Assembly (NCBI GenBank): GCA_041659685.1
Contig: JBAZXV010000008.1
Span: 3,332 to 67,331, forward strand
DNA length: 64,000 nucleotides
Direction: 5' to 3'
Source of the DNA: Parcubacteria group bacterium
GTDB lineage: Bacteria; Patescibacteriota; Minisyncoccia; Moranbacterales; UBA11712
Shown here: positions 9,001-23,405 of the stretch, piece by piece
Layout of the letters: each line of letters begins with the position of its first letter
How positions within the stretch are numbered: the stretch's first letter is position 1
The notes under the pieces: generated by a model
Databases searched by the model: none
Seen by the model: the letters and a program-made list of their open reading frames with translations, nothing else
Told to the model about the DNA's origin: nothing
Position numbers and translations under genes: made by a program

Positions 9001-12000
9001 GCCTCCGGATTGTGTTGCATACAATTTCCCAAACCCGCTGGTCGCGCTTGGAGAACTCGCTTGCTCGGCGAGACTCATCACGCCGTTCACTGTCAGTTTC
9101 TCATTGGGGCTGATTGTTCCAATGCCGACGCTGCCGGAAGAATTCACATACAAAGCCTCAGTCGATCCGCCGCGGACGCGGAGGGGCGAAACAGTCGAGG
9201 ACGCTCCGGTTTGGAGATTCAAGAGCGAACCGGTGCCATTGGCTGAATTGTCGGTCGTGAGCGAAAAGAGGTCGCTGGTTCCGGTTCCCGTCGCCCAGTT
9301 GAAGACGGTCGTGAAAGCGCTCATCGGAAGAGACAGATTGGTGGATGGATCGGTGAGAGTCGACCAAGAAGCTGCGGTGCTGCTGGTACTACTTCCGCTG
9401 CCAATGTTGGTCCAGGTTCCGCCGGAAGCTTTGTATTGGAGGATTCCGGCGTTGTCGCGGATGCCATATCCGGAAGAACCGATGGTTGTGCCGAAGTTGA
9501 GATAGGCGCTCGCCGCAAGACCCAGGTTGCCGCTTGAATCAAAAACTATCTCCGGATCCCCTGTGCCGTTCACATTGAAGCCGAGCGTGTTGGCGGTGGT
9601 GTTGTAGCTCAAAGTATATTCGTCGCTTGTCGAAGATCCGATATGGAGCGTAGCCGGTCCAAGAAAGAGATCGCTCCAGCGATGGGTGTCGTCGCCGAGA
9701 TTATAGGTATCGTCAACTGAGGGAAAGATGTCTCCCGCGACGGTAAGTTTGGCGGAAGGACTTGTTGTCCCGATTCCGACGTTGCCGTTCATTGTTACGT
9801 CACCGTTAGACCTGATTGTCATTCTTTCGCTTCCATTGAGCGTCGTGTCATTCGCCGCGGTAAAAAATCCTATCTCCGTCGCCGCATTTTCCATATTAAA
9901 ACTTGCGCCTGCTCCGCCAATCCAAACCTTATTGTTAGTGCCGTCAGAACGCCCCTGAATCAATGCGACTGGCTCCTCTGCGTCGGTTTTATGAGCCATC
10001 GCGATAAAAGCATCTTTTTGCGCATTGCCGCCACTGGCATAATCAGAAAGTTTGAGAGTCACCACATTGTCACTTCCGACAATATCCAGCTTCGCCCCCG
10101 GATTCGTCGTCCCTATCCCGACGTTGCCTTGATTTGTAACGACAAATTTTTCCGACCACAGTCCACTGCCATGATTTGTATAAACCGAAAATCTTCCCGT
10201 ATAAGTGCCTGTCGCGCTTCCCGATGACTGCAATATGATATTAGAACTATCATCCGATAATGTTGGTCTGGCATTGAGGATAATTTGAGCTGTAGTTGGA
10301 TTATATACAGTCAATCCTCCGCCATTTACAAAAGCTGACCCTGCCACTTCTAGCTTCGCTCCCGGGCTCGTCGTCCCGATGCCGACGTTTCCTTGCTTTA
10401 TATACAAACTATTAGCCACCGCTCCTGAACCTGTCATCACCAAAACATCATTGGTTCCGCCTGCCCGAATCACAGTGTCTCCCGAGCTTCTGATTGTCAT
10501 GGCCGCGCTGGTATTGTCTCCGATATACACATTGTTCCCGCTGGAAAAATAAGCCAGCTGTCTTGCTGTCCCGCCGCTATCTTTTGCGGTCAAAGCCTGT
10601 TCATTATCAAGCAATATACTTCCACCCGAAACTGTCAGTTTCGCCCCCGGACTCGTCGTTCCGATGCCGACGTTGCCCGCTTTCAGTACCAGCGTATTTG
10701 CCACGGCCGAAGGTTGATAAATGGTCATGACTTGGGCAGCGTTTACTTTGAAAAGCATATTTCCGTTTGATTTGTCACCGGCTTCCAAAATAAGCGACCC
10801 CACATTAGCATGTTCATTCCCATACAGATAGATCGTCGCGCCTCTCGTGTTTCCGGCCACTCCTCCGCCAGTTATTGTCAAAACATCGCTGTCCGAAGCG
10901 TCAACTGTGGCAGTACTGATGGTCGAATTTGCTCCGAAAGACAATTTGGAAGTCGGATTCGTCGTCCCGATCCCGACGTTGCCCGCTGATGTTATTCTCA
11001 TCCACTCATTTGCTCCTGTGTTTATGCTTCCATTCGTTGCAAAAGTTATTGGATTAGCACTGTTTGTCAAGATGGAAAGTCCCGCTTCGGCTGAAATAAA
11101 ACCGCTATTAGCTCCTGCATAATAAGTATTCGTTGAAGCATACGTTCCGAGTTGGTTGTAATATGAAGAATTGTAAACCGCGATAGAATTTCTAGTATCA
11201 CTACTTGCTACAAATTTTGCCATTGTAGCACTTGTTGGAGCTCCATAAACATGCAATAGCATTCCCGGCGCGGTCGTTCCAATGCCAACGTTGCCGCCGT
11301 CGGCTACCGTCATGTATGATTCCCACACGCCGTTGTTATCTACATGCCCAAACTGAACATTTCGATCTGTCGCAGAACTCGAATTTCCCCTGATGCGGAT
11401 TGCACCGCTGTTTGTATCGCCCATTATGAATCTCTCCGTGAGTTCAGAAGAGAAAACCAAATTTCCTCGCAGACTTTCGTTTCCCACGACAACAAGTTTC
11501 GAACCGGGACTAGTTGTCCCAATCCCGACATTGCCGTTTGTGTCCCAGATTCCCGACCCGGGGAAATATGTGTTCGCCGAGAAAGTCTGCGCGCCGGTCC
11601 AAGTATTGGCGTGTCCGAGATTCAAAGACGCGACCACATCTCCGATCGTCGGCGAGATGGTGAGCGTCCCGTCGGAATTTGTGACCGAAGAAACTCCGAC
11701 GCTCGCTACCGATGTCCAACTGGCGAGTCCATTCGCGTCCGAGGTCAAAACTTTGTTGAGACCCGGAGTTCCGCCGGTGATTTTCACTTGCCCCGCAACT
11801 TCGAGTTTCGAGCCAGGTGTAGTGGTGCCGATTCCAATGTTGTCACTCTTTAAATATAACGTGTTGGCTGCGTTCCCCTGCTCCACAGTCATTACGACTT
11901 TTCCTCCTTGATTATCATAGAGTTTAAAACTTCCATCATTAGCTGTAATGCCTTGTCCAATTGACCAACCGTCTGACCCATCAACTTTGCCAAAAAACAA

Positions 12001-14763
12001 ATTGGCGTTTTGGTCTGCAGCAGCATTAGTAATTGCTATGGTTGCACCAGAAACTTGAAGATTTCTTGTCGGACTTGTCGTTCCGATGCCGACGTTTCCG
12101 GAGCTTATTATTCGCATCGCTTCCGTTGATGAATAACTTGAGTTAGTTCGTCCAGTTCTAAAAGACAAAAAATTATCGGAAGCAGTGGCGGAACCCGCAA
12201 TATCAATATATCCGCCTACTCCACCATCCTGTAAAAATGACATCTCTTGCGGACGCCCCGTGGTATGCAATACAAAACCAGATTGACCGTTTGTTGCTGT
12301 TGCAGTTAAATCTAGTATTTTATCAGCAGATGAATTTATAGACGCATGGGGGCTCGTCGTCCCGATGCCGACGTTGCCAGTTCTCAAAACAGTAAACACG
12401 TCCACCCCATCACCCAAAGCTTGGTTATTTACTGTGAATCTTCCTTCTGTCGCTCCAGAACCAGCGTTTGTGGAAATACCAGCCGTCACCCATCCAGGCT
12501 TAGTTGCGTGTGAATGGGCAAACAAGTTTATTGCTCCGCCATAACCATTGGAACCAACACCAGCTTGCATCACCAATTGACCCGTGCCCGTGTTGGTATC
12601 AGCAGATTCTCCCATTATTATGTACCTTCTGCTCCCGTCTACTTTTGATAATCTGATATTCCCGTTTACGGACAGCGGGCTGTTCGGCGCTGTCGTTCCG
12701 ATGCCGACGTTGCCGTCATTTTTTATATTCAGGATCGGATTCCCCCATGTTCCTATTTGTATTTGGTTTGTATTGTCCAAATTGCCTACATACATATCCG
12801 TTGCAGTTTGCTGATTGAAAAATATCAGTCCGCCAGAACCGCTTGCATTTGAGTTAAATTCAAGAGTGGCTCCGCTACCCGTCCCTAATTTGGCATTTCC
12901 TGCCACATGCAACAGCGAGCTTGGGCTCGTCGTCCCGATGCCAACGTTGCCCGCTATGTATCCGTTTCCGCTAAGCCACAGGTCTGACCATTTAGCGGTT
13001 GAAACTCCTAAACTTATCATGCCAGTACTAGAAACATAGGGTCTGAAGGCGCCATTAGTTAAAACAACATTGCCCCCATCTGCTCCTCCGTTTGCCTTCA
13101 AGTTGAAGTTTCCGCTTGTCCCCGCTAAAAATGTAAAATCCGGACCAGTTCCATTGGTTGTAATGCTCAATTGCCCTACGCTGTTCACAGCGAATTGGGT
13201 GTAATTTGAAGCATCGTATCCCAATCTTAATTGTTCTGTGGTTTTAAATACATGTAATGCCGCTCCCGGCGCGGTCGTCCCGATGCCGACATTGCCACTT
13301 GCTCCGGCATAGAAAGTTCCGGCGCCATATGCCGCGACTCCTCCGAGATATACATTTCCGGAAGTATCAATTCTGAAGCGAGTGGCTGGCGTTGTGCCGT
13401 CTTCAATAATGAAATTGTCATCTCCTCCGTTCTGTCCCACTCCCATATACCAATTTCGGCTGTCAGTTTGAATGGAAGTATAAGTATTGGCGTCGGCTGT
13501 TCCGCCAACCACCAGTTTATATTGTGGATTCGTTGTCCCGATCCCGACGTTGCCGTTATTTAAAATAACCATTTTTGACCCGTTACTTCCAGTCGAACCA
13601 ACCCTAAAGTCATAACCATAAGAATTTAAAACTAGTGCCTGGTCGCCTGCTCCTCCAATATTGGATATGCCCAAAGTAGCACCAGTATATCCGCTCCTTG
13701 AAAGCTGCATTGAATCATTCCATGCCGAGCCATAAACATCCAACTTCGCCCCCGGCGTCGTTGTTCCGATCCCGAGGTTGCCGTTTTGTAAGATTGTCAT
13801 TGCTTCTGTGCTTCCCATCTGAAAACGCAATCTACCTGCTCCACTTTCCATCATAATACGCCCCGACAAATCATTCATTTGTCCGAAACTCATATAATCA
13901 GCACCAACCAAATCTCCGTTAGAAGCATCGAAATACATCAAACTGTCACCCGAACCCGTATTCGCAATGAGAGTAGTAGTTCCTCCTGCAGATGAATCGC
14001 TTATGGTTAACTTTTGCCCCGGAGTCGCGGTTCCAATCCCGACGTTGCCGCCCGTGAAAGTCGCGGCGTATCCCGTTCCTGACTGAGCGACTTTGAGCGC
14101 CGTACCGGTTCCCCCGCCGGAGCCATACACGACGCTCAAAGCACTGTTTGTCCCGCTCGCGGGATTGTAATTTATATTCGCCGCGTCTTGTGCGGCCCCA
14201 GTGTTGTCGATATCGATGAATCCATCCCCGACCACGTTCAGCGAATTGATGGCTTGGGGAACCGCGCCTAGTCTTTTGCGGGGGGACATTTCCGCGTCTG
14301 AGTCGACCGTCACGCCGAGATAATATGTGTCTTGGTCAAAGTTTAGATTCAATGCATTGCCATTTCCGCTTCCGAGCATCACCGAAAAAATTCCCTTGCT
14401 GACTGCTACTGCGTTCCCGTTCACTGCCGTATACGTCCCGGTCCAGAGGAGATTTCCGTTTTCGGCCGCGTCATACAGCTTGAAAACCATGTCATAGTTC
14501 CCATCCGCCACCGCCACGTTCGAAGTGTTCGTGAGTTTTCCCTGATAATTCATCTGCCGGTTGACCGCCGCTTGAGAGAAGTAGGCAAAGCAAAAAAACC
14601 CGACTGAAACAATCAGCCCCGTTCGAACCACCCGTCCGATTCGTATTATTTTTCCCACTTGCCCCTTCAACCCCATTTTTCCCGTTTCACCCTTTTCATC
14701 CATTTTTTCAGTTTTGTTTCTTGTTTTGTTTCTCACTTGAGATTCAGTTCCCTCGATTCCCAT
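1..14763 (-). CDS. giant secreted/cell-surface protein, >4,900 aa within the window (C-terminus beyond window start): signal/TM segment + GNVGIGTT beta-helix repeats + 5 LamG-like domains + 2 Kelch-like propellers
   Basis: The minus-strand frame whose codon first bases fall on coordinates divisible by 3 is open with no stop at every point translated: 1-1380, 1681-1800, 2341-2460, 2976, 4347, 9135, 12714 and 14521-14763. Translation gives GSIGIGTTSPNEKLTVNG...KLLLHADG...GYMDEVRVSKGTARWTSNFTPP and GNVGIGTTSP motifs. In-frame stops at 14766-14768 and 14773-14775 are followed by in-frame ATGs at 14763, 14703 and 14676. A basic-then-hydrophobic N-terminus (KIIRIGRVVRTGLIVSVGFFCFAY) follows. No complete minus ORF in this frame is listed in the track, consistent with an ORF that leaves the window without a stop. 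Confidence 0.8.
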   Translation of the reverse strand, partial: MGIEGTESQVRNKTRNKTEKMDEKGETGKMGLKGQVGKIIRIGRVVRTGLIVSVGFFCFAYFSQAAVNRQMNYQGKLTNTSNVAVADGNYDMVFKLYDAAENGNLLWTGTYTAVNGNAVAVSKGIFSVMLGSGNGNALNLNFDQDTYYLGVTVDSDAEMSPRKRLGAVPQAINSLNVVGDGFIDIDNTGAAQDAANINYNPASGTNSALSVVYGSGGGTGTALKVAQSGTGYAATFTGGNVGIGTATPGQKLTISDSSAGGTTTLIANTGSGDSLMYFDASNGDLVGADYMSFGQMNDLSGRIMMESGAGRLRFQMGSTEAMTILQNGNLGIGTTTPGAKLDVYGSAWNDSMQLSRSGYTGATLGISNIGGAGDQALVLNSYGYDFRVGSTGSNGSKMVILNNGNVGIGTTNPQYKLVVGGTADANTYTSIQTDSRNWYMGVGQNGGDDNFIIEDGTTPATRFRIDTSGNVYLGGVAAYGAGTFYAGASGNVGIGTTAPGAALHVFKTTEQLRLGYDASNYTQFAVNSVGQLSITTNGTGPDFTFLAGTSGNFNLKANGGADGGNVVLTNGAFRPYVSSTGMISLGVSTAKWSDLWLSGNGYIAGNVGIGTTSPSSLLHVAGNAKLGTGSGATLEFNSNASGSGGLIFFNQQTATDMYVGNLDNTNQIQIGTWGNPILNIKNDGNVGIGTTAPNSPLSVNGNIRLSKVDGSRRYIIMGESADTNTGTGQLVMQAGVGSNGYGGAINLFAHSHATKPGWVTAGISTNAGSGATEGRFTVNNQALGDGVDVFTVLRTGNVGIGTTSPHASINSSADKILDLTATATNGQSGFVLHTTGRPQEMSFLQDGGVGGYIDIAGSATASDNFLSFRTGRTNSSYSSTEAMRIISSGNVGIGTTSPTRNLQVSGATIAITNAAADQNANLFFGKVDGSDGWSIGQGITANDGSFKLYDNQGGKVVMTVEQGNAANTLYLKSDNIGIGTTTPGSKLEVAGQVKITGGTPGLNKVLTSDANGLASWTSVASVGVSSVTNSDGTLTISPTIGDVVASLNLGHANTWTGAQTFSANTYFPGSGIWDTNGNVGIGTTSPGSKLVVVGNESLRGNLVFSSELTERFIMGDTNSGAIRIRGNSSSATDRNVQFGHVDNNGVWESYMTVADGGNVGIGTTAPGMLLHVYGAPTSATMAKFVASSDTRNSIAVYNSSYYNQLGTYASTNTYYAGANSGFISAEAGLSILTNSANPITFATNGSINTGANEWMRITSAGNVGIGTTNPTSKLSFGANSTISTATVDASDSDVLTITGGGVAGNTRGATIYLYGNEHANVGSLILEAGDKSNGNMLFKVNAAQVMTIYQPSAVANTLVLKAGNVGIGTTSPGAKLTVSGGSILLDNEQALTAKDSGGTARQLAYFSSGNNVYIGDNTSAAMTIRSSGDTVIRAGGTNDVLVMTGSGAVANSLYIKQGNVGIGTTSPGAKLEVAGSAFVNGGGLTVYNPTTAQIILNARPTLSDDSSNIILQSSGSATGTYTGRFSVYTNHGSGLWSEKFVVTNQGNVGIGTTNPGAKLDIVGSDNVVTLKLSDYASGGNAQKDAFIAMAHKTDAEEPVALIQGRSDGTNNKVWIGGAGASFNMENAATEIGFFTAANDTTLNGSERMTIRSNGDVTMNGNVGIGTTSPSAKLTVAGDIFPSVDDTYNLGDDTHRWSDLFLGPATLHIGSSTSDEYTLSYNTTANTLGFNVNGTGDPEIVFDSSGNLGLAASAYLNFGTTIGSSGYGIRDNAGILQYKASGGTWTNIGSGSSTSSTAASWSTLTDPSTNLSLPMSAFTTVFNWATGTGTSDLFSLTTDNSANGTGSLLNLQTGASSTVSPLRVRGGSTEALYVNSSGSVGIGTISPNEKLTVNGVMSLAEQASSPSATSGFGKLYATQSGGNDTYTKFLLHADGTGNSFTDSESTPKTITANGDAIQSATQSEFGGKSAYFDGSGDSLSVADSNDWTFGSGDFTVDFWAYSSNFATGTEQEFVAQSNYGSASLTRWVVGADATGHAFANFWTDGTSVTVGITSSNVLSNSNWHHVAWVRNGTSFKLYVDGVERGSGTSSATINDAAQPLTIGMNDYSSNHYYFAGYIDELRVSKGTARWTSAFTPPTQAYNTTGLFYKTAGGTEYELGGSGGGSSFSNLWGQNGTNLYYTSGNIGIGTTSPLAALDMTGGLILRGSNNYLNFGSLTGTNGYGLRDNGGTIEYKNSGGDWATFGAVGGGWTDAGSNVYLSSVSDNVGIGTTTPNEKLTVNGVMSLAEQASSPSATSGYGKLYAMAMTGNDSYTTLLLHADGSGTTFTDSSASAHAMTAGGNSTQSSTQYEFGGKSAYFDGTGGVTTPATADFNFGSGDFTVDFWARVSVVGSYQYFIGDLNSAGNDHEWHFYLDSSNNIVFSTKDTGNILRYVKSTTTVSANTWYHISGVRSGSTLYLFINGTSEVGSGSTTNIGASALKNFVSTNLGIGKLGDYAGNYLNGYMDEVRISKGTARWTSAFTPPTRAYGSGTSLAFKDSSGTETILGSTGGASGLTSPWGTNSSSLYYTGGNVGIGTTSPAAALSVVGNAILSGSSRYLNFGSTSGSSGYGIFDNNGTLQIKNSGGSWTNIPTASASQWTNNGNNIYFTTGSVGIGTTIPNHTFDIAGNLGLSTSAYLNFGATDGGTGYGLRDNAGTLQFKNSSGNWEDIGSGTSTLSWSVLTDPSTNSYLGMGDYSTNLNWTTGTGTSDLFSLTTDNLADGTGSLLNVQTGASSSLSPLRVRAGSTEALYINNSGNVGIGTTAPNEKLTVNGAMSLAESAAAPDVTSGFGKLYAVPLSGNDSYTKLLLHADGTGATFTDSSSSGKTVSAAGTATQSTTQYKFGGESASFSSGYLSTTDSTDWTWDGDFTVDFWFRLNSTTNNFFLTSAGSLPNPSLRIMYDASNGWNLYDGAANHAFSDSLSTGVWYHAAVVRTNGVVKVFRDGAQKGSDWATSATFDMSASGLYIGADWNGGTSFNGYMDEYRISKGIARWTSAFTPPTRAYGSGGVLAYKDSLGTETVLAGASGSGASSLWGQNGTSAYYTSGNVGIGTTAPLAKLDLAGSGILSGLNNYLNFGSTAGTSGYGLRDNNGTMEYKNQSGAWVAIGSGGGGTTSMSMQEDGWADSGSTLPAALYGSQTAVIGDYVYLFGGYNSNIIYRAPVSSPTSWTNTGSTLPGNLGYSQVAIIGDYVYLFGGNIAGTTTNVIYRAPLSNPTSWANTGSTLPGNLDGSQVAIIGDYIYLFGGYNGGGNTNVIYRAPLSNPTSWANTGSTLPTNLTWSQLAVIGDYVYLFGGYGTATIYRAPVSNPTSWASTGSSIPGTLSYSQAMIVGDKIYQLGGYLGSSVYTNVMYSASVSSPTTWTNTGKTLPSNLYLSQVAAVGNYAYLFGGNNGSVGIGTIYRTPILNGGPSLASNASWKYATSSAAGIWTANTNGSIYYTGGNVGIGNNAPNHALDITGNFGLSANGYFNWGTADGTNGYGFRDNAGTLQFKNSGGIWTNLGAGAGSSSWSALTAPSTNLSLNMGTYSSAFNWTTGTGSSDLFSLTTDNSANGTGSLLNLQTGASSTLSPLRIRAGSTEALFAGNTGNVGVGTISPNEKLTVNGNISIAESMNAPDATSGFGKLYAVGGIGGNDSYTKLLLHADGTGATFTDSEATPKTVTAYGNATQSSTQSEFGGKSSYFDGTGDYLSLADSSDFAFGAGDFTVDAWVYLTASTVGHRITVFSIGDKGWGLDQRQEITCGITNNQLDFRAETGSGYAWTTITEGTVPLNQWVHVAYVRSGSSVFGFINGVKTSTSTTSFSFTVNNYIRIGGFYSRGSEYQDDVANYKDEIRVSKGIARWTSNFTPPNQAFDVGKHLAYKDSDGNITALTGGSSGASSQWGTNGSSLYYNSGNVGIGTTAPLAKLDLAGSGILSGLNNYLNFGSTAGNSGYGIRDNNGTMEFRNSNGAWMAMGSSSGTGSTGMKEDEWVDTGATLPGVLAHSQTAVIGDYVYLFGGTNASAATNVIYRAPVSNPTSWTNTGATLPGNLQQSQVAVIGDYVYLFGGVSASAITNVIYRAPVSDPTSWSNTGSTLPGNLQASQVAVIGDYVYLFGGHNGSAYTNVIYRAPVSNPTSWENTGSTIPGNLAYSHVAVIGGYVYLFGGTLNGPVTNVIYRAPVSNPTSWVNTGATLPASIGMSQVAVIGDYVYLLGGYTSGAISTIYRAPVSNPTSWVSSGATLPANLYASQTAVVGGYVYLFGGGNASYNSVIYRAPIYNNGPDLASNSDWKYYATSSTATGVWTANPDGSIYHTGGSVGIGNATPNHALDVIGNIGLAANGYFNWGTADGTNGYGFRDNAGTLQFKNSGGAWTNFGGAGSSTWSALTAPSTALSLNMGTYSTAFNWATGTGTSDLFSLTTDNSANGTGSLLNLQTGASSTVSPLRVRAGSTEALFANSTGSIGIGTTSPNEKLTVNGVMSLAEQTSSPSATSGFGKLYAMSPLAGNDSYTKLLLHADGMGATFTDSSSSAKTVTANGDATQSTTKSEFGGKSAYFDGTGDYVSVPDSDDWDYGSGDFTIDMWVNRNNAGVLDRIIDQWVDTSNYFSVYIDTGNQLNTYLNISGSTVIGFHSTITIPATTWTHIAIVRSGGVVTQYINGVASGTASTNTWSTFAAPVEIGRVVYGPTYFSGYMDEVRVSKGTARWTSNFTPPTRAYGASALAFKDSSGNETVLGSSSSGSGASSLWGQNGSNIYYTSGNVGIGTTSPLAALDLTGSAILRGSNNYLNFGSLTGTNGYGIFDNNGTLQFKNSGGSWTNLGGAGSSTWSALTAPGTSLSLNMGTYSSAFNWATGTGTSDLFSLTTDNGANGTGSLLNLQTGASSTLSPLRVRAGSTEALFANSTGSIGI
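560..1190 (-). other. LamG-like domain 5
   Basis: Directly translated: KLLLHADGMGATFTDSSSSAKTVTANGDATQSTTKSEFGGKSAYFDGTGDYVSVPDSDDWDYGSGDFTIDMWV...GYMDEVRVSKGTARWTSNFTPPTRAY. Confidence 0.7.
2000..2760 (-). repeat. Kelch-like beta-propeller, 5-6 blades
   Basis: Translated blade: TSWSNTGSTLPGNLQASQVAVIGDYVYLFGGHNGSAYTNVIYRAPVSNP. The unit recurs every ~144 nt at about 2021, 2161, 2301, 2445 and 2585. Confidence 0.6.
3085..3745 (-). other. LamG-like domain 4
   Basis: Translation gives KLLLHADGTGATFTDSEATPKTVTAYGNATQ...KDEIRVSKGIARWTSNFTPP. Anchor motifs lie at 3720-3745 and 3111-3135. Confidence 0.6.
4440..5290 (-). repeat. Kelch-like beta-propeller, about 6 blades of about 48 aa
   Basis: A 144-nt periodic DNA repeat is seen at about 4550, 4725, 4855, 5000 and 5145, with the same repeat unit as the 2000-2760 propeller. 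Confidence 0.55.
5630..6235 (-). other. LamG-like domain 3
   Basis: The plus strand reads cgtcagcatgaagaaggagctt (HADG) at about 6205-6235 and ggaggagtgaaagcggaggtccagcg (RWTS.FTPP) at about 5651-5680. Confidence 0.55.
7180..7830 (-). other. LamG-like domain 2
   Basis: The KLLLHADG-encoding segment is at 7801-7830 and the RWTSxFTPP-encoding segment at 7201-7230. Confidence 0.55.
8330..8990 (-). other. LamG/Concanavalin-A-like jelly-roll domain 1 of the giant protein
   Basis: A KFLLHADG-type start sits near 8950-8990 and a DE(V/I)R(V/I)SKG.ARWTSNFTPP end near 8351-8380 (plus-strand ggcggagtgaaagcggaagtccaacg). Confidence 0.6.
9560..14100 (-). repeat. about 16 tandem beta-helix-type repeats (77-117 aa each), each carrying a GNVGIGTT(S/A)P...KL.V.G motif; N-terminal half of the giant protein
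   Basis: The plus-strand motif ccgat(g/c/t)ccgac(g/a)ttgcc (reverse complement GNVGIG) recurs at about 9768, 10120, 10375, 10662, 10965, 11278, 11516, 11828, 12082, 12362, 12698, 12930, 13280, 13535, 13765 and 14030. All copies are in the same frame. Confidence 0.7.
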
Positions 14764-14786
14764 TTTTTATTTCTAAATATTTTTGA

Positions 14787-14814
14787 ATTTTACACTGTCA
14801 TTTTTCGCTTTGAA
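14787..14814 (-). promoter_or_regulatory. candidate sigma70-like promoter for the giant gene (TTCAAA-N16-TAAAAT on the minus strand)
   Basis: The minus strand reads ttcaaagcgaaaaatgacagtgtaaaat in the 52-nt spacer between the HTH-gene stop (14816) and the first in-frame ATG (14763). Confidence 0.3.
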
Positions 14815-14815
14815 C

Positions 14816-15238
14816 TTATTTCGGAACCACTGTCACTGATCCCACTTCCTCCGGATTATCCGCGTGAATTATGAGGTTATTATTTGCATCTTTCTCAACT
14901 TTAATATCGCTTTCCGAATTGATTCCCCGATAATTCCAGGAAATTATCACAAGTATGAAAATTGCAACCAGCACAACAGCCCATTTGAGATTGAGAACGG
15001 CTTTTTTTTGCTCAAAGGCCGGGATATTTGCGTTTAGTGATTCCTGCCGGCGATAGTTCGCCTCCGCTACCCGATCGGTGTATTTTTCAACCGTTTCTTT
15101 CGTCGTAAACCACTTGCCGTCTTTTTTAAATCCCTCCAATTTTCCTTTTCTCACCAAAAGACTCAGATAGTCCGCGCTATAAGGAGAATTTTTACTGGCT
15201 TCTTGCAGTGTAATTAGATTTTTTTCTTCAGCTCCCAT
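14816..15238 (-). CDS. membrane-tethered DNA-binding protein: N-terminal excisionase/MerR-like HTH, one TM helix, short extracytoplasmic tail
   Basis: LITLQEASKNSPYSADYLSLLVRKGKLEGFKKDGKWFTTKETVEKY resembles an HTH_17-type motif, followed by a hydrophobic WAVVLVAIFILVIISW segment. The gene is co-oriented with and 52 nt upstream of the giant gene. Confidence 0.55.
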   Translation of the reverse strand: MGAEEKNLITLQEASKNSPYSADYLSLLVRKGKLEGFKKDGKWFTTKETVEKYTDRVAEANYRRQESLNANIPAFEQKKAVLNLKWAVVLVAIFILVIISWNYRGINSESDIKVEKDANNNLIIHADNPEEVGSVTVVPK

Positions 15239-15258
15239 TTTTTTGATATTTAAGGTAA

Positions 15259-15300
15259 CTCGATATCATATCCGATACTGTATCGACACCAGAATTATAG
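15259..15300 (-). promoter_or_regulatory. candidate promoter/operator of the HTH gene: extended -10 (TGcTATAAT) followed by two adjacent palindromes (CGATACAGTATCG, GATATGATATC)
   Basis: The minus strand reads gtgcTATAATtctggtgtCGATACAGTATCGGATATGATATCgag immediately upstream of the ATG at 15238. Confidence 0.35.
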
Positions 15301-15303
15301 CAC

Positions 15304-15332
15304 AAAAAAAGGCCTGCCAACAGCCTTTTTTA
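15304..15332. terminator. rho-independent terminator hairpin, A-tract/stem/T-tract and symmetric
   Basis: The sequence aaaaaaaGGCcTGccaaCAGCCtttttt lies downstream of the RAYT gene on the minus strand. Confidence 0.55.
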
Positions 15333-15348
15333 ACCAAGTTATCCACAC

Positions 15349-15376
15349 CCCACTTAGACACTCAGTGTCTAAGTGG
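15349..15376. repeat. REP-like palindrome type 1 (ccaCTTAGAcactcagtgTCTAAGtgg); overlaps the RAYT stop codon
   Basis: A perfect 27-nt palindrome. Its reverse complement recurs at 15817-15841. Confidence 0.7.
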
Positions 15377-16019
15377 ATTCATCTGATTTTTCCATAAATT
15401 CAACATCCCCTTTTCGCCTCAAGATGGCCTCAAGAGACATTTTTGAAAACTCTTCATATTCCTTGAAATTTGGAAATTGATCGCAAATTATACTTTTCTC
15501 GCAAAAGCCGGTTTTTCGCCACTTTTCGTATTCGGACCAGCTACTCAGGAAAATCCCACCAACATCTTCCATTTTATGCACTTTATAGTTCAAATTGACA
15601 TAAGTTGAGGCGTAAAGCAACTGTTTATTGGTTTTAATATGGACTGACTGGAAAGGGCCCTGAAAAAGCACTCCATTCCTCTTATGCCTGTGATTGAAAT
15701 ATTTCGTATACCCGTTTCCGATTTTGTGCATAAATTTTTCAATTCCTTTATCTGAAACTTGCTCAAGAATCAGATGATAATGGTTCGGATTGAGACAAAA
15801 ACACACTATATTTACCCACTTAGACACTGAGTGTCTAAGTGACTTATTCTTGTGAAAAGAGCTGACATAGATACCGCCATATGATTCAACCCGATTGAAT
15901 TCAGACATACTCTGCAAAAATCGGGAAATGTCTTTTTTATCGAGAAAAACAGGTCTTTTCTCAACACCTCGGTTATAGACATGATAGTACTCTCCGTTTA
16001 CTAATTGCACTTTTCTCAT
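15369..16019 (-). CDS. HUH (Y1) tyrosine transposase, IS200/RAYT-like
   Basis: 216 aa. GEYYHVYNRG N-terminus, HUH motif NPNHYHLIL and a Tyr region GNGYTKYFNHRH. A paralog lies at 22688-23347. Confidence 0.7.
   Translation of the reverse strand: MRKVQLVNGEYYHVYNRGVEKRPVFLDKKDISRFLQSMSEFNRVESYGGIYVSSFHKNKSLRHSVSKWVNIVCFCLNPNHYHLILEQVSDKGIEKFMHKIGNGYTKYFNHRHKRNGVLFQGPFQSVHIKTNKQLLYASTYVNLNYKVHKMEDVGGIFLSSWSEYEKWRKTGFCEKSIICDQFPNFKEYEEFSKMSLEAILRRKGDVEFMEKSDEST
15817..15841. repeat. REP-like palindrome type 1, inverted copy, lying inside the RAYT coding sequence (encodes SLRHSVSKW)
   Basis: cacttagacactGagtgtctaagtg is the exact reverse complement of the 15349 copy. The paralog at 22688 lacks this segment. 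Confidence 0.65.
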
Positions 16020-16029
16020 AGAGTCTTTG

Positions 16030-16995
16030 CTACTTAGAAGCTCCGCTTCTAAGTGAAATTTTGTAGCGCCTCAAAAACCACCACCAGATTCCGGCAAGTG
16101 CCAGGACTGCGAGAAGCTCTTTCCACGGAACCAAAAAAATGAATTTTTGAAATTTCATATTTCGTCCCTCCCCGTCCTTGATGTTTCCAGATATTTTATA
16201 GAGCCCGAGAAAGTCCTTCCTCTGAATATCCTCTGAAAAAACACGACTGGTTGTCGGAAGAATTGTCCGGTCTTTTATTTCCAGTCTGCCAATTTCCCGC
16301 CCAAAAATGTTTTTCACTGACACTTCCCCCTCCGGCTTAAAATGAGAATTTCCTTCGTTTGCAATTTCAATTTCCAAATTTGATTTATCGGTAAAAGAAA
16401 TTCTGGGCAATTCTACTTTTTTCAGAATGCCTTTTTTCACCGCGTTTCCGCCGGCTTGCACCAGAAACAGCACTCCCGCCCGGCCAGACACGCAAACACT
16501 TGATTTATCCGTCCAAACTACATTTTTATCTTCTTCAATATTGCATCGGGTCCGAAAGAAAATTACCCCGTAATGTCCGCCGAGATTAGCATCCTCTGGC
16601 GCCCTGATCTTATAATCAACAACCTTATTTTTTCCCTTTTCTAAGCTAAAATTATCCTCGTCAACCGAAAGCCATTTGCTCATGAGATAAGGCCTTAATT
16701 CATCGTTCGCAATGTCCCTGCCGCCGGTAAAAATATATTTTCCGGCATCGTCCATAAAAAAATCGGAAAACTCGACCGCAATATCAAGATTTTGATCAGA
16801 ATTGTTTCCGACATAAATTTTTCCTGTTTTTTCTTCCCCTGGATTGATTTCGAGATCAAAATAGAGCGGCGACACCGTGAGTGAAACCGGCCCTTCGGCA
16901 TGAGAAAAAGAAACTGGAAAAAAGAGACTGACCAAAACAATCAGCCCCAACGCCGCTATTCTTCCTGCCTGCCATATTTTTCTCATCCGCCTCAT
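16030..16995 (-). CDS. secreted protein with C-terminal TM anchor plus basic tail; DUF916/DUF3324-like (CscA-like) architecture
   Basis: 321 aa. Signal peptide (IAALGLIVLVSLFFPVSFSHA), GGHYGVIFF motif and a C-terminal LAVLALAGIWWWFLRRYK segment. Paralog of the 17000-17995 gene. Confidence 0.5.
   Translation of the reverse strand: MRRMRKIWQAGRIAALGLIVLVSLFFPVSFSHAEGPVSLTVSPLYFDLEINPGEEKTGKIYVGNNSDQNLDIAVEFSDFFMDDAGKYIFTGGRDIANDELRPYLMSKWLSVDEDNFSLEKGKNKVVDYKIRAPEDANLGGHYGVIFFRTRCNIEEDKNVVWTDKSSVCVSGRAGVLFLVQAGGNAVKKGILKKVELPRISFTDKSNLEIEIANEGNSHFKPEGEVSVKNIFGREIGRLEIKDRTILPTTSRVFSEDIQRKDFLGLYKISGNIKDGEGRNMKFQKFIFLVPWKELLAVLALAGIWWWFLRRYKISLRSGASK
16031..16056. repeat. REP-like palindrome type 2 (tACTTAGAAGCtccgCTTCTAAGTg); supplies the last codons and stop of the DUF916-like gene
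   Basis: The minus strand reads ...SLRSGASK* from this palindrome. Its inverted copy is at 58065-58089. Confidence 0.65.
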
Positions 16996-16999
16996 TATA

Positions 17000-17995
17000 C
17001 TATTCTTTTTTCTTTATCTCAAACTTCGAGAAGAAATATTTAAACAAGTAGTATATGATAATAAATATCAGGATAACCAGGATTGCAACGTGCCACGGAA
17101 AAGCATAAAAAACCAGACTCTCCTGGTCCTTAAGGTTTCCGCCAAAGCCATAAAAAACGGTGAGGTCGGCTGTATAGCGCCCGACCAGCCACTTTTTCGC
17201 CCATTCAGTCTCCTGTCTGCGGGATGAATCCGAAAGCACCACCCACTCCTTTATTGGCAAATGTGCTACTTCCGCCCCAAAGATATTTTTTATAGCCACT
17301 TCTCCTTTTACTCTCTGATAAACATTTCCGGTATTTCTGAAAACCGTGCTGAAATCCACCGGACCGTTGCGATAGAAAATTTTACCGGCTTTGAATTCCG
17401 TGATCTCCCCAGACTCAACATTGTTTCCGGCCACATTGATGAGAACCAAAAGCCCCACGCGGCTCACAAGCCTCACCTTATCTTTTCCGCCCGAAGAATT
17501 ATCGCTTGAAACAGAGACAAATATAGCGGCATAGTGACTCCCCGTCCTTGCCCCCTCGGGAACTTTGACTTCAAAAGGCAGAGACAAGCGGTCTCCGTGA
17601 TTAAGATTCACCTCGTTGATTTCCGGAGTTATCCAGTCTCTTGCCGAAGTGGCAGCCGCATAATCTCCTCCTAAAAAAACGGTTGCCTTTTCCGGGTCTT
17701 GCGAACCCACAAAGTCTTCTTTATCGATTTTAAAATCGGCTGTCCTTCCAAGGCGATTTACCACCACCATTCGCTGGCTGGACGATTCTCCCGGCGCAAG
17801 CGTGAGCTCAAGATTAACAGGAGAAATAACAAACCGGTCTTCAACATTTTCCTGATAATTTTCAATAGTATAGGCTTTTGCTGATCCGGCAATTCCAAAC
17901 ATCAAAAAAAAGCCACAAAATAAGAGTAGCCATGAAAATATCGTCTTTCCCGTGAAACAACCTTTAATAATTGGTTTAATAATTCCGGAGATCAT
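17000..17995 (-). CDS. secreted protein with C-terminal TM anchor; DUF916/DUF3324-like paralog
   Basis: 331 aa. Signal/TM segment, TGSHYAAIFV motif (compare GGHYGVIFF in the paralog) and a C-terminal HVAILVILIFIIIYYLFKYFFSKFEIKKKE. Confidence 0.5.
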   Translation of the reverse strand: MISGIIKPIIKGCFTGKTIFSWLLLFCGFFLMFGIAGSAKAYTIENYQENVEDRFVISPVNLELTLAPGESSSQRMVVVNRLGRTADFKIDKEDFVGSQDPEKATVFLGGDYAAATSARDWITPEINEVNLNHGDRLSLPFEVKVPEGARTGSHYAAIFVSVSSDNSSGGKDKVRLVSRVGLLVLINVAGNNVESGEITEFKAGKIFYRNGPVDFSTVFRNTGNVYQRVKGEVAIKNIFGAEVAHLPIKEWVVLSDSSRRQETEWAKKWLVGRYTADLTVFYGFGGNLKDQESLVFYAFPWHVAILVILIFIIIYYLFKYFFSKFEIKKKE

Positions 17996-18066
17996 TAATT
18001 TTCAAGTATCAATTTCCCGATAAATTTTCAACGCAATAATTTTCAAAATTTAAAAAATTGAAAATC

Positions 18067-18690
18067 CTATAATGTTGTTGCCGTCGCTGTGACAGTTGAT
18101 GCGTAAGCGCCGGTCGGCTGGAGCTTTGAAGATCCGACCTCAGCCTTGAAAGTTACCGTCGTGCTGTCACCGGCGGTTTCGGCGGAATTGTGAGACACCT
18201 GCTCTTTTGTTGTGCTGTTAAAACCCATATATTTATCCACTCCAAATTTCGTTTCGACATAGCTTCCGGTCGCGCCAAAGCCGAATTCCGCGGCGCTGGG
18301 CGCGACTAGCCAGGCTTCCGGAGTGCCATCCGCCGTTTCGCTGTAATCGGCAAAAACATCGCTTCCGCTATGCATTGTACTGGCCTGGTCCGTGTTCACC
18401 TCTAATTTCCACCCGGCAGAGTTGTTTGTTGTCACCGTCCAGGTGGTTGAACCCGTCGAAGAGCCCGTGCCGGTAATATCCGGCGCCATTGTCACATCAG
18501 ACGGCGTGTTGAGACTAATGGTAGCCAGGACATTCAAGTTAACAACAACGCTATCCGTAGTTTGAGCGGCATCCGATACCGCAGGCTCAAGAGCTGAAAA
18601 TCCCATTATCAGCACAAAAAGACCGGCCAGCGAAAAAGCTGCCGCCCTTAAAAAGTTTTTTCCAAATTTATTTTTATTTTCCTCTGTCAC
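18067..18690 (-). CDS. small secreted beta-rich surface protein, WxL-domain-like
   Basis: 207 aa. N-terminal hydrophobic segment. ITGTGSSTGSTTWTVTTNNSAGWKLEV resembles the D.RGTG.GW.V motif of WxL domains. C-terminus is TGAYASTVTATATTL. Confidence 0.45.
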   Translation of the reverse strand: MTEENKNKFGKNFLRAAAFSLAGLFVLIMGFSALEPAVSDAAQTTDSVVVNLNVLATISLNTPSDVTMAPDITGTGSSTGSTTWTVTTNNSAGWKLEVNTDQASTMHSGSDVFADYSETADGTPEAWLVAPSAAEFGFGATGSYVETKFGVDKYMGFNSTTKEQVSHNSAETAGDSTTVTFKAEVGSSKLQPTGAYASTVTATATTL

Positions 18691-18732
18691 TAAAATTATT
18701 TTACTTGGTGCAATTATTATATATCAAACGTT

Positions 18733-18832
18733 TTTTCCTGCAAAGGAAAAGTTATCCACAGAATTGAATAAATTTATTATATAATAAATATTTTTTTCCT
18801 GCAAAGGAAGAATTATCCACAATTCCTTTTAG
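18733..18832. repeat. about 38-bp direct repeat x2 (ttttttcctgcaaaggaa.a.TTATCCACA.aatt), each containing a perfect DnaA-box 9-mer; lies upstream of the 18067-18690 gene
   Basis: Copies are at about 18733-18770 and 18794-18832. A third TTATCCACA is at 15339-15347. Confidence 0.4.
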
Positions 18833-18842
18833 CTAAGCCGCC

Positions 18843-19550
18843 TTAAAGATTCGTGGCCGTTGCCGTGATTGTCGCCGTGTACGTGCCCAACGGCTGACTG
18901 TGGCCGGATCCGGATTCGGCCTTAAAATTTATCGTCGTGTCGTCTCCGGTACCCTCGCTGGGGGCATTCCGGTGCGCCGCTTGAATCCGATTCGCTCCGT
19001 TAAATCCCAGATATTTATCACCCGAAAAACCGGCTTCGGCATATGTCCCGGAAGAATTGAAACCAAATTCACTGTCAGCCGCCGCCACAGACCACTCTTC
19101 AGGCGTTCCGGACACCGCTTCATCGTAGTCCGCAAATGAATTTCCTCCGCTTGTCAGCGCCGGCGAGGCACTCGCATTCACTTCAAGTTTCCATCCGTCC
19201 GGGTCATTCGTTTCCACGTTCCAGGTAACGCTTCCGGAAGTCGATCCCGCTTCCTCGATTTCCGGAGATAGGGAGACATCGGCGGGCGAATTGAGACTCA
19301 CTGCCGAAACAACCGTAACGCTGACGGTCACCGAGTCCGATGAGTCTCCCGCCACGAGACCATCGATGCTTTCAAGATAGCTAAAAAATAAAATCGAAGA
19401 AAGCGCCAAGAGAACAATTCCGAGCATCGAAAAAAACTCTATTTCAAAAAGAAAAATCCGCCGTTTATTTTTCGGCAAATGGCTGTAGTATAAACCGAAT
19501 TTCTCAATCAGACTTTTGGGTCTTCTTTTTTTTGTTTTTCTTTTCATCAA
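18843..19550 (-). CDS. small secreted beta-rich surface protein, WxL-domain-like paralog
   Basis: 235 aa. VTWNVETNDPDGWKLEVN motif and C-terminal GTYTATITATATNL. The real start is probably internal, near MLGIVLLALSS. Confidence 0.45.
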   Translation of the reverse strand: MMKRKTKKRRPKSLIEKFGLYYSHLPKNKRRIFLFEIEFFSMLGIVLLALSSILFFSYLESIDGLVAGDSSDSVTVSVTVVSAVSLNSPADVSLSPEIEEAGSTSGSVTWNVETNDPDGWKLEVNASASPALTSGGNSFADYDEAVSGTPEEWSVAAADSEFGFNSSGTYAEAGFSGDKYLGFNGANRIQAAHRNAPSEGTGDDTTINFKAESGSGHSQPLGTYTATITATATNL

Positions 19551-19594
19551 ATCATGTTATTCCTATTGCCTTAGCGGCTTTATTTTGCTCCGCG

Positions 19595-20299
19595 TCAGAT
19601 CGTTCCCACCGCAGTATATGTAATCGTGCAGGAATAAGCGCCTGATTTCTGATCCGAAGGAACATCCGCCTTATATCCGATCACCGTTTCGTCAGCTTCG
19701 CTCTTGTAACCTCTCTTTGCATGTGCAGTCTCGGCCACATCCGGAAAAGCGGCGTATTTATAGTTCGGATTTTCTCCCCATTTCGCGTCCACGCCGGTTC
19801 CGGAAATAACGGTGAAGCCGAAACCCAGATTGTTCGGCGCTGACCAAAGGAGCGGCGTCGCGATTGTTCCACTATGGTCGTCAATAGTCGTCACCCCGTC
19901 CGTGTGGCGCATTTTGTGATCCTTGGAAACATTGAGCGAATAGCCGTCCCATGAGTCGGTTGTCACGGTAACCGTACTTTGCCCCGTCACCGGACTTCCC
20001 GCGAGCAGAGACCCTAAATCTTTAGTGTGGCTGTCAACCGTTAAAGTGAGATAGGTGTTTACCATATACCAAAATCCGGCATTCATCTTGTATGTTCCGC
20101 TCGCGCTTTCTCCGGTCGCAATTTCGCCCAAGGTATCATTCAGTTTATATGTTTCGGAACTGCTTGCCGCTCCCCCGAAGTTAATCGAATCAGCATTGAT
20201 CTTATAGCTTCCGCTTGACATTTGGGAGAGACAACCGCCGGCTGACAAAAAGAAAAATACGGCTAGGGAAAATATTTTAAAGACAACAAGTTTACTCAT
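19595..20299 (-). CDS. small secreted, possibly lipid-anchored, beta-rich surface protein; third paralog
   Basis: 234 aa. Signal segment with a lipobox-like LSAGGC. C-terminus GAYSCTITYTAVGTI parallels the other two paralogs. Confidence 0.45.
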   Translation of the reverse strand: MSKLVVFKIFSLAVFFFLSAGGCLSQMSSGSYKINADSINFGGAASSSETYKLNDTLGEIATGESASGTYKMNAGFWYMVNTYLTLTVDSHTKDLGSLLAGSPVTGQSTVTVTTDSWDGYSLNVSKDHKMRHTDGVTTIDDHSGTIATPLLWSAPNNLGFGFTVISGTGVDAKWGENPNYKYAAFPDVAETAHAKRGYKSEADETVIGYKADVPSDQKSGAYSCTITYTAVGTI

Positions 20300-21215: not shown

Positions 21216-21233
21216 TGTTTGAAAGAGTTAAAA

Positions 21234-22710: not shown

Positions 22711-23405
22711 CCTCTTTTTTATTTTTCATGTAAACAGCGTTTTCAAAAATAAATTTTTTAAAATCAGTATAATCTTTGAACTGATTCATTATGACTTTCT
22801 TGTTGCAAAGCCCCTTTTTTCTTTTTCCAAGATAATCCGGAAAACTTGAGTACTTCCATTCTTTCTCTTTATATCCATGAATATAATGATTCAAATTCAC
22901 GTAAGCCGCAAGATAAAGCAATTTAGAATTTGATTTTATATGAACTCTCTTAAATTTCCCCTGAAACAGAGCGCCCGACCTGCTATTTCTTGTATTAAAA
23001 TAATTAGTATGACTCGTTCCGATTTTGTGCATTAATTTTTCTATTCCATTATTGACTAATTGCTTTACGATCAAATGATAATGATTTGGATTTAGACAAT
23101 AACATATAAACTCGACTAGTTTTTTTCGTTTTTTTTTCAATAATGGAAAATCAGAAAGCTCAGCCTCAGGATTGTTGTCTTTATAATCCCTCCAGGCGAT
23201 CATGAGTCCGTCATCTTGATTATTCAGCAGGTTCATCGACAGCTTAAACCTTTCAAAATCCCGCTTGTCCTGAAAAATTTTTCTCTTGTCCACTCCTCTG
23301 TTATACAGGTGGTAATATTCACCGTTTGTAAATTCAATTTTTCTCATTTTATTTTACCCTAGTACCCTAGAGTCTAGAGTCGAACTCTAGGGTTGCGTTA
23401 TTCGA
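22662..23405 (-). mobile_element. IS200-like (TnpA-only) element: Y1 transposase gene bracketed by a direct repeat TCGAATAACGCAACCCTAGAG-loop-CTCTAG(GG) containing hairpins
   Basis: Left copy is at 22662-22695 (ccctagagTTCGActctaggg + ttgcgttattcga). Right copy is at 23365-23405 (ctagagTCGAActctaggg + ttgcgttattcga). The repeat supplies TCGAATAA stop codons for both glmS (VTVE*) and the transposase (YLLE*). Confidence 0.6.
22688..23347 (-). CDS. HUH (Y1) tyrosine transposase, IS200/RAYT-like paralog
   Basis: 219 aa. GEYYHLYNRG, NPNHYHLIV and HTNYFNTRN motifs. Its last 7 codons overlap the first 7 codons of the mntH ORF as called. Confidence 0.7.
   Translation of the reverse strand: MRKIEFTNGEYYHLYNRGVDKRKIFQDKRDFERFKLSMNLLNNQDDGLMIAWRDYKDNNPEAELSDFPLLKKKRKKLVEFICYCLNPNHYHLIVKQLVNNGIEKLMHKIGTSHTNYFNTRNSRSGALFQGKFKRVHIKSNSKLLYLAAYVNLNHYIHGYKEKEWKYSSFPDYLGKRKKGLCNKKVIMNQFKDYTDFKKFIFENAVYMKNKKEDEKYLLE

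Follow-up and report, generated by a model that had tools for sequence, protein, structure and literature searches.

A membrane-tethered helix-turn-helix protein and a conserved double palindrome form a candidate regulator–operator pair at a giant surface-protein operon in Parcubacteria

Does a small gene that lies directly in front of a giant surface-protein gene encode the regulator of that gene? The question is raised by a locus on a 64-kb stretch of DNA from a Parcubacteria group bacterium (contig JBAZXV010000008.1). This whole stretch is called the window here; the coordinates given are those of the window, and all features of the locus lie on its minus strand. The small gene (14816–15238, stop codon at 14816–14818, from the list of open reading frames (ORFs) and the sequence) encodes a protein of 140 amino acids with a helix-turn-helix (HTH) domain, one transmembrane (TM) helix and a short tail, which we call the HTH-TM protein. 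The initial annotation, made from the sequence alone, had proposed it as a regulator of the giant gene. Based on sequence comparison and structure modelling, the locus is well supported as a real feature, namely a candidate regulator–operator pair for the giant surface-protein operon in Parcubacteria. On balance we lean towards the HTH-TM protein being a dedicated membrane-tethered transcription regulator (autoregulator or repressor) of this operon. The fold, the topology, the synteny and a footprinted operator speak for the original proposal, and a separate promoter in the spacer before the giant gene, which was part of it, does not stand.

Concerning the layout of the protein, the cytoplasmic part comprises an excisionase/MerR-like winged HTH (residues 8–46) and a helix (residues 47–70), encoded at 15029–15217, as judged by AlphaFold2, Foldseek and Pfam. 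A single TM helix follows (approximately residues 84–103, 14930–14989; hydropathy and AlphaFold2), and then a predicted extracytoplasmic tail (residues 104–140, 14819–14929) with the conserved core VEKDxxNNLIIHADNPxxIGSVTVVPK. The protein has one hydrophobic segment (Kyte–Doolittle peak 2.75, residues 81–99) and no N-terminal signal peptide. Three lysines (K78, K79 and K85) lie on the N-terminal side of the TM helix and the C-terminal tail has a net negative charge, which places the N-terminal 83 residues in the cytoplasm and the last 37 outside. The protein should therefore be a type-II (N-terminus inside) single-pass membrane protein with the HTH facing the cytoplasm. The single TM helix and short outside tail described initially are borne out by the hydropathy, the charge pattern and the model.

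The AlphaFold2 model, built from a 25-sequence alignment, has a predicted local distance difference test score (pLDDT) of 79.9 overall and of at least 90 for residues 11–60. It consists of a strand (8–10), two helices (11–16 and 22–30), two strands that form the wing (37–39 and 42–46), the helix 47–70, a TM helix (74–104) and two short tail strands (pLDDT 59–72, modest confidence). The order strand-helix-helix-strand-strand(wing)-helix is that of an HTH_17-type fold and is found both in the model and in its Foldseek matches. The best of these in the PDB are TraN (pIP501), BldC, Pukovnik Xis and RdfS, followed by MerR-family regulators bound to DNA (probability 0.97–0.99, target-normalised TM-score 0.70–0.77, root-mean-square deviation 1.4–1.8 Å); the E-values are weak (approximately 0.1) because the domain is small. 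In sequence, residues 10–54 align with positions 3–47 of the 51 positions of the Pfam profile HTH_17 (PF12728). This profile matches 19 of 25 family members at E ≤1 (best 3.8e-6), three members (P0016, P0017 and P0022) carry a precomputed PF12728 assignment, and the family member P0046 matches it at 5e-13; hhalign of the A1 family profile against P0046 gives a probability of 97%. The HTH_17 membership of the window protein is thus transitive, at the family level. The excisionase/MerR-like HTH of the initial annotation, for which the lack of an HTH fold at residues 8–50 had been named as the refuting outcome, is upheld by the predicted fold, the structural matches and the HTH_17 domains of the relatives.

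There are 39 full-length homologues of the protein, one of which (P0001, from a metagenome-assembled genome labelled 'Parcubacteria group bacterium') is identical. Mean column identity is highest in the HTH (0.81), followed by tail residues 112–140 (0.75) and the TM helix (0.61), and lowest in the juxtamembrane stretch (0.39). Residues D117, N121, I124, P129 and K140 of the tail are invariant. A tail that is nearly as conserved as the HTH points to a functional part and not to a mere spacer.

Upstream of the gene, the window contains an operator-like 25-bp double palindrome, CGATACAGTATC-G-GATATGATATCG (15261–15285), composed of two palindromes of 11–13 bp that are 12 bp apart, centre to centre (CGATACAGTATCG at 15273–15285 and GATATGATATC at 15262–15272). 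It begins 8 nt after an extended −10 box, TGcTATAAT (15294–15302), and covers the predicted transcription start, which lies near 15287 at the operator edge. A −35-like TTGGCA (15315–15320) is located 15 nt before the TATAAT, inside a terminator-like tract of A-run, hairpin and T-run (15304–15331; fold −10.3 kcal/mol, z = −1.77); the hairpin and T-run are conserved in the window and in the related loci L018, L020, L011, L014, L004 and L032. The extended −10 box and the two adjacent palindromes had been noted before; they are confirmed in the sequence, and the palindromes are conserved and far beyond chance.

Alignment of the upstream regions shows that the two palindromes form a single conserved element, CGATAnnnTATC(C/G)GATAnnnTATCG. 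The pattern GATAnnnTATCnGATAnnnTATC, with at most two mismatches, occurs once in the 64 kb (0.00 expected), and the operator is found exactly once per related locus (approximately 384 kb of related DNA). There are 15 distinct operator versions in the related loci, where the proteins are 44–100% identical. Fifteen of the 25 operator columns are invariant (G2, A3, T4, A5, A10, T11, C12, G14, A15, T16, A17, T21, A22, T23 and C24), the central triplets are variable, and the flanking intergenic DNA cannot be aligned around the operator. All 15 versions have a TATAAT or TATACT 8–13 nt upstream, with an upstream TG in nine of them, and in most loci the operator ends 22–24 nt before the ATG. Viral contigs served as a negative control: they contain at least 120 motif matches, none of them beside an HTH-module gene, and four of 120 have a TATAAT within 30 nt. 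We regard these matches as chance, given that none has an HTH-module neighbour and that no TATAAT is nearby in 116 of the 120 listed. The single palindrome CGATAnnnTATCG was also tried as a regulon marker and rejected, as its four copies in the window (2.2 expected) are no enrichment.

The genomic context of the gene was retrieved for homologues from 88% to approximately 30% identity (about 15 lineages). In every relative with enough context, the HTH-TM gene lies directly upstream of a very large surface-protein gene on the same strand. The downstream gene encodes 1,056 to >5,157 amino acids and is 3–213 nt away (the window, P0002, L001/L003, L004, L012, L015, L016, L019, P0047 and L032). The largest is the giant orthologue on the contig of P0002 (>5,157 amino acids), whose HTH-TM protein is 88% identical to that of the window. 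The others comprise 1,996 (L001), 2,498 (L003), 2,176 (L004, with Laminin_G_3), 1,056 (L012, with Peptidase_S74), 1,259 (L016 and its twin contig, with Peptidase_S74), 1,501 (L007, after a DUF559 insertion), >1,073 (L015), >2,012 (L019), >2,851 (P0047) and >4,233 (L032) amino acids. In the informative relatives the partner genes are of the LamG, Peptidase_S74 or GNVGIGTT-repeat type. The gene order is a WxLIP_PGBD-type surface protein, an optional insert (a RAYT gene in the window and P0002, a beta-lactamase-like gene in P0038/P0039), the HTH-TM gene and the giant gene. The exceptions are L029, a 1.4-kb contig with an inserted 23S-rRNA-IVP gene, and L010, where the downstream gene is in fragments. 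Retention upstream of giant genes, which the initial annotation had put forward as a check, holds in all informative relatives.

The lineage of P0037–39 is the most distant one with the operator (44% identity), and its arrangement is different: the HTH gene abuts the preceding gene, and the block of promoter and operator comes only after the HTH gene, ahead of the giant gene (L016 10493–10515, L007 11213–11235). The operator has thus been relocated together with the promoter, which indicates that its invariant association is with the promoter of the giant gene. In L007, a small DUF559 (endonuclease-like) gene (10724–10900) lies between the HTH-TM gene and the operator with its giant gene.

Does the HTH go with the operator? 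The recognition helix PYSADYLSLLVRKGKL pairs with GATA/TATC half-sites even at 44% overall identity, and helix and wing (PYSADYLSLLVRKGKLEG.KK.GKW) are nearly unchanged across the lineages that keep these half-sites. Among the lineages that keep the element, L014/L001 is the only one with the substitutions A22V and S26R, and a degenerate element (GGATACGACATCAGATAGTGTATCC) is likewise confined to it; in that of L014 the inner half-sites are degenerate and the outer bases swapped. Two divergent full-length homologues (L032/L033 and L029) have the helix YD(S/A)NYLGLL, and there the GATA element is replaced by GTATT(G/C)AAT motifs. L032/L033 keep the promoter module (TGTGGATAAC, the terminator hairpin, the T-run and GGTATAAT) and possess, approximately 30 nt past the −10 box, three exact 11-bp direct repeats of GTATTGAAT (L032 7940–7972, L033 3874–3906), the only such cluster in 16 kb. 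The 1.4-kb contig L029 contains one palindromic copy, GTATTCAATAC, and the related CTATTGAG close to the start codon, whereas L031, with the helix YSDEYLGLL, contains a single CGATATAGTATCG. The repeat type changes with the recognition helix, which is the pattern expected of cognate regulator–operator pairs. The HTH module is present in a single copy in the window, and Pfam scans and annotation, which covered parts of the cluster and gave no match for several of its proteins, name no further DNA-binding candidate. From these comparisons we infer that the HTH-TM protein is the binder of the 25-bp element.

The element could also act at the level of RNA. It lies just past the −10 box and would be transcribed, and small hairpins formed by these 25 nt at the 5' end of the mRNA might stabilise the transcript of approximately 15 kb or more, or regulate its translation, with no involvement of the HTH protein. 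A stem of 4–5 bp with a 3-nt loop is possible in each unit (95.8% of cells pairable), and a partly conserved leader (..cttaaa.aaagcaa..) follows the element. However, no compensatory changes are found in the two candidate structures (two small hairpins or one long one), the stems being invariant in sequence; the variable positions pair no better than shuffles, the fold of −6.6 kcal/mol is no better than that of shuffles (z = −0.88), and no Rfam family matches. The divergent lineages have direct repeats instead, which are unable to form hairpins. We consider this explanation improbable.

The HTH part of the protein belongs to a much wider family. A search with the family profile against 1.84 billion cluster representatives gave 2,515 matches at E ≤0.001, only three of them at ≤1e-30, and nearly all to the HTH part alone. 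The clusters span 100 to 4,676 amino acids. The architecture was counted in the best 150 representatives: the module is detectable in 148 and N-terminal in all 148, and two tandem copies are present in 123. A hydrophobic segment is found in 99, with a median of 41 amino acids past the last copy, and it is the single one in 92 of the 99. At least 1,000 amino acids are reached by 22 of the 150, at least 2,000 by 12. Tandem arrays range from two to at least four copies, with up to six matched stretches in P0149; P0046 and P0135 are further members with the module. Fused examples are P0069 (4,384 amino acids, with Laminin_G_3), P0075 (3,504 amino acids, with 14 GNVGIGT motifs) and P0044. The giant protein of the window is homologous to the ectodomains of such fused giants (P0075, 8e-14; P0069, 1.5e-7; P0048, 9e-8). 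Based on this homology, the common fused design looks like one of HTH module(s), TM helix and giant ectodomain, of which the window locus appears to be the split version. No function of the module, which is found across the Candidate Phyla Radiation (CPR), was found in the literature searched.

The relation of split and fused forms strengthens the functional link to the giant gene, but it also raises a structural explanation, in which the HTH-TM protein is a detached anchor or adaptor of the giant fibre, a cytoplasmic foot, and another factor reads the palindrome. The tail would dock the exported giant protein, and the HTH would bind either the nucleoid non-specifically, as RacA does, or a protein, as RodZ binds MreB. 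The constant N-terminal position of the module, mostly as two tandem copies, is what such a foot would have, and so are the single TM helix after it in approximately two-thirds of the representatives, the many proteins of giant size and the apparent equivalence of split and fused forms. The almost invariant recognition helix of the whole family, a tail whose conservation matches that of the HTH, and a similar predicted N-terminal fold in another membrane protein of the window, an Nramp transporter, point the same way. What the anchor leaves unexplained is an operon-specific palindrome that tracks the gene pair through rearrangement, and the change of repeat type with the recognition helix; moreover, all close structural matches are DNA-binding proteins, most of them solved with DNA. 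We regard a purely structural role as rather unlikely; it does not exclude the regulator reading, since an anchor can also autoregulate.

The Nramp/MntH transporter (21439–22710, minus strand) has an N-terminal cytoplasmic extension of approximately 95 codons (22426–22710), which is conserved in the orthologue of L012. An HTH-like segment had been noted here in the initial annotation. At the sequence level this finds no support, as the N-terminus matches neither the A1 family profile nor Pfam, but a single-sequence AlphaFold2 model (pLDDT 70.5, two of five models confident) has the order strand-helix-helix-strand-strand-helix of the HTH protein and gives Foldseek matches to BldC, Xis, RacA and MerR. 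If this winged-HTH model is right, the transporter would be a second membrane protein of the window with an N-terminal HTH. The ORF is shorter than expected: its Pfam match reaches only profile position 304 of 357, and it encodes 423 amino acids, as against 477–479 in relatives. The C-terminal TM segments that it lacks seem to be encoded in a different frame ahead of the BacA gene (21216–21450, minus strand), as would result from an assembly-error frameshift or in a pseudogene.

Several observations weigh against the HTH-TM protein as the dedicated regulator. In the protein itself, the HTH_17 match is at 12.7 bits (E = 0.16), below the gathering threshold of 27 bits, and the family profile, searched against PDB sequences, had no match even at E ≤10. 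The outside part, which by the initial annotation would sense an envelope or host-contact signal, has only 37 amino acids and no recognisable sensor domain, too little for a conventional sensor. Concerning the operator, the centres of the two half-sites in a palindrome are separated by only 7 bp, an unusual spacing for a symmetric HTH dimer, and the loci are phylogenetically related, so that the count of 15 operator versions overstates their independence. The co-variation of helix and repeat is a pattern over no more than three or four lineage classes. Finally, the recognition helix (YSxxYLSLLxRxGKL) is nearly identical over the family of more than 2,500 clusters, and the GATA double palindrome was not found at the genes of the two fused members inspected (L017 and L030), whose upstream regions contain only AT-rich imperfect palindromes; the conserved helix residues may accordingly belong to the core of the fold or contact a common non-specific ligand.

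If the HTH-TM protein regulates the operon, several HTH copies would bind CGATAnnnTATC(C/G)GATAnnnTATCG, either at four GATA/TATC half-sites or at two 12-bp repeats, as a close-packed multimer in the style of BldC and Xis. As the operator covers the predicted transcription start, its occupancy should hinder initiation, and the outcome would be negative autoregulation of a transcript that carries the HTH gene and then the giant gene. In the P0037–39 lineage, where the operator lies directly before the giant gene, the protein would regulate the giant gene alone. The outside tail would most likely contact a partner, be it the giant protein or the WxLIP-like surface proteins of the upstream genes, and this contact would couple the state of fibre export or assembly to the occupancy of the promoter. 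The sign of regulation and the signal are the weakest steps of the model. A more speculative view, which we put forward only tentatively, unites the two roles: the module would be the cytoplasmic foot of the giant fibres of the CPR and at the same time a product-coupled, membrane-tethered autoregulator, which has been split off in this locus. Fibre export, assembly or mechanical load would then pass via the TM helix and the 37-residue docking tail to the operator, and co-translational membrane insertion of the giant product might help to bring the promoter to the membrane. If true, sensing would need no sensor domain of its own, and giant genes throughout the CPR would share one regulatory logic.

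Membrane-bound transcription regulators have been described before: transmembrane transcription regulators (TTRs) are an established and widespread class (PMC10269533), and the predicted combination of a DNA-binding domain with at least one TM region in one polypeptide places the window protein within their definition. PsaE–PsaF are reported to control the PsaA fimbria (PMC6657601), ArnR of Sulfolobus is reported among the TTRs controlling adhesins or pili (PMC6396743), and VtrA/VtrC is a co-component transmembrane system (PMC9214523). TTRs of the ToxR/TcpP/CadC/PsaE type share with the window protein a cytoplasmic N-terminal DNA-binding domain, one TM helix and an outside part. They act from the membrane on a nearby promoter; several control adhesins or fimbriae, and several need an outside partner. 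However, their DNA-binding domain is an OmpR/PhoB-type winged helix and not one of the Xis/MerR type, they have a folded periplasmic sensor where the window protein has only the 37-residue tail, and they usually activate from upstream sites, whereas the site in the window overlaps the predicted transcription start. Trans_reg_C has no match in the window protein, and membership of the ToxR-like receptors was rejected based on the different DNA-binding fold and the lack of a folded sensor domain.

The best structural matches to the HTH core, BldC, Pukovnik Xis and RdfS, have no effector domain. Unlike the window protein, they are soluble, approximately 55–70 amino acids long and devoid of a TM helix or tail, with 14–18% identity. 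BldC and the excisionases bind closely spaced repeat arrays as cooperative multimers; such binding would fit the units spaced by 12 bp and the three 11-bp repeats of L032. The top Foldseek match, TraN of the Enterococcus plasmid pIP501 (4pm3/4p0z), has two tandem excisionase-like winged HTHs and binds double-stranded DNA. Its two-domain chain mirrors the tandem copies of most family representatives, whereas the window protein is single-copy and TraN is a soluble cytoplasmic part of a conjugative type IV secretion system. The MerR family (BmrR, SoxR, CadR, NmlR and CarH) shares the winged HTH followed by a long helix, but its members have a C-terminal effector domain and activate by binding inside an over-long −35/−10 spacer of 19–20 bp. 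The window locus differs on each count, with a spacer of 15 nt, an operator past the −10 box and a protein that lacks an effector domain. Membership of the MerR family was rejected on the same grounds, and because the helix 47–70 runs into the TM helix.

Two further proteins are models for the structural foot. RodZ has the same architecture of HTH, TM helix and outside part, although its HTH is of the Xre type and binds MreB; membership was rejected, as neither HTH_25 nor the C-terminal RodZ domain of Pfam matches. In RacA, a MerR-like winged HTH serves to anchor the chromosome, but the protein is soluble and binds DivIVA. Neither is tied to a specific promoter-proximal palindrome.

Excisionases act in recombination, and the protein could in principle be an excisionase or recombination-directionality factor with the palindromes as its recombination site, either at an invertible, phase-variable adhesin promoter or in connection with the neighbouring IS200/RAYT-like transposase. 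The fold class is that of the excisionases, and a Y1 transposase-like gene with its own 26-nt palindrome is located immediately upstream (RAYT-like gene, 15369–16019, minus strand). Yet the promoter is not flanked by inverted repeats, and the only long ones found are part of the RAYT palindrome; no recombinase is conserved nearby, as the RAYT gene is there only in the window and its closest relative, whereas the remaining loci with HTH gene and operator lack it; and in 15 of 15 loci the promoter points the same way. Excisionases are not known to carry a TM anchor. A role in recombination is very improbable, and membership of the recombination-directionality factors was rejected for want of a conserved adjacent recombinase and att-type sites.

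The RAYT gene is one of two paralogous IS200/RAYT-like Y1 transposase genes of the window (the other at 22688–23347, minus strand; Pfam Y1_Tnp 8e-5 and 4e-6, respectively), and its position before the HTH-TM gene is due to an insertion seen only in the lineage of the window and in P0002. The perfect 26-nt (13+13) palindrome CCACTTAGACACTnAGTGTCTAAGTGG occurs twice, at approximately 15350–15376, overlapping the stop codon of this first RAYT gene, and at 15816–15841, inside its coding sequence.

The giant gene itself occupies positions 1–14763 and consists of more than 4,921 codons, stop-free to the left end of the window. The protein starts with a Sec-type signal or anchor and contains 28 GNVGIGT-type motifs; in the translation, repeats resembling LamG and Kelch are visible too. 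According to the initial annotation, the HTH gene ends 52 nt before the giant gene. This is correct for the first in-frame ATG at 14763 (spacer 14764–14815), but the true spacer may be longer. In a 75% identical relative (L018), the start of the giant ORF is limited to a GTG 77 nt or an ATG 119 nt past the HTH stop codon, which makes the 52 nt a minimum; the GTG homologous to that start is conserved in the window at 14736, 79 nt past the stop codon. The actual start in the window may be this GTG or a later ATG. The first nine codons of the window ORF (14736–14763) are kept at the nucleotide level in L018 (1040–1068) in another frame, which ends there at a TGA overlapping the GTG start; this may be an upstream mini-ORF or plain 5' untranslated region.

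Are the two genes transcribed together? A separate promoter had been suggested in the spacer, and the sequence in question, TTCAAA-N16-TAAAAT (14787–14814), is present. It matches a promoter at 9 of 12 positions, at the level of chance (two matches in the region, 1.8 ± 1.2 in shuffles), and neither it nor the spacer is conserved in relatives. An independent promoter in the spacer was rejected on these grounds. No convincing terminator was found between the HTH gene and the giant gene, which makes co-transcription the simpler reading and, from the sequence, the more likely one. A terminator-like site at 14600–14618 lies within the signal-peptide codons of the giant gene and was judged to be due to chance.

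Further upstream, a cassette of five to seven secreted or membrane proteins (16030–20299, minus strand) precedes the pair of HTH-TM and giant genes in all relatives, e.g. L001, L004 and L012, and resembles the WxL/Csc cell-surface-complex loci of Gram-positive bacteria. It holds two CscA-like proteins of approximately 320–330 amino acids, the first of which (16030–16995) matches WxLIP_PGBD at 1.2e-10 and the second of which (17000–17995) has no Pfam match. A promoter-like module of approximately 61 nt, TGTGGATAAyTyTTCCTTTGCAGGAAAAAA...TATATAATAA, is tandemly duplicated at 18700–18830 (minus strand), upstream of a gene for a 207-residue protein (18067–18690). A DnaA-box-like 9-mer, (C)TGTGGATAA(C) or TTATCCACA, is found just past stop codons, in either orientation, before several genes of the cluster, usually approximately 25–60 nt upstream of a TATAAT where one is visible. 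The window has three copies (0.34 expected), all inside the surface-protein gene cluster and on the minus strand: TGTGGATAA at 15339–15347, upstream of the promoter module of the HTH-TM gene, and two at 18752–18760 and 18813–18821. Across the window and the related loci (approximately 384 kb) there are 21 distinct sites; in relatives the 9-mer is found at the same place and also in front of other promoters of the cluster. Another copy lies upstream of the fused giant gene with three HTH copies on the Portnoybacteria contig L017. The 9-mer thus has the look of a further regulatory site that serves the whole cluster.

The CPR, or Patescibacteria, are thought to live attached to host cells, and among their proteins the giant surface ones are the foremost candidates for making this contact. 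The control of genes of 5 to >15 kb of this kind is almost uncharted, and very few regulators of the CPR have known targets. Our literature search, whose coverage was incomplete, found neither the HTH-TM family nor a connection between it and giant genes described for the CPR. Although TTRs as a class are already known, a membrane-tethered candidate switch for a giant gene would be of a kind so far undescribed in that literature. As a candidate regulator–operator pair, the locus is open to direct testing: its site measures 25 bp, regulator and operator both occur in natural variants, and one lineage has the operator in another place. Such work needs no culture of the organism and could be carried out in vitro or in a surrogate host. 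Beyond this operon, a great many membrane and giant proteins of the CPR have one and the same small HTH module as their usual cytoplasmic end, and its function in these membrane proteins is probably a general one.

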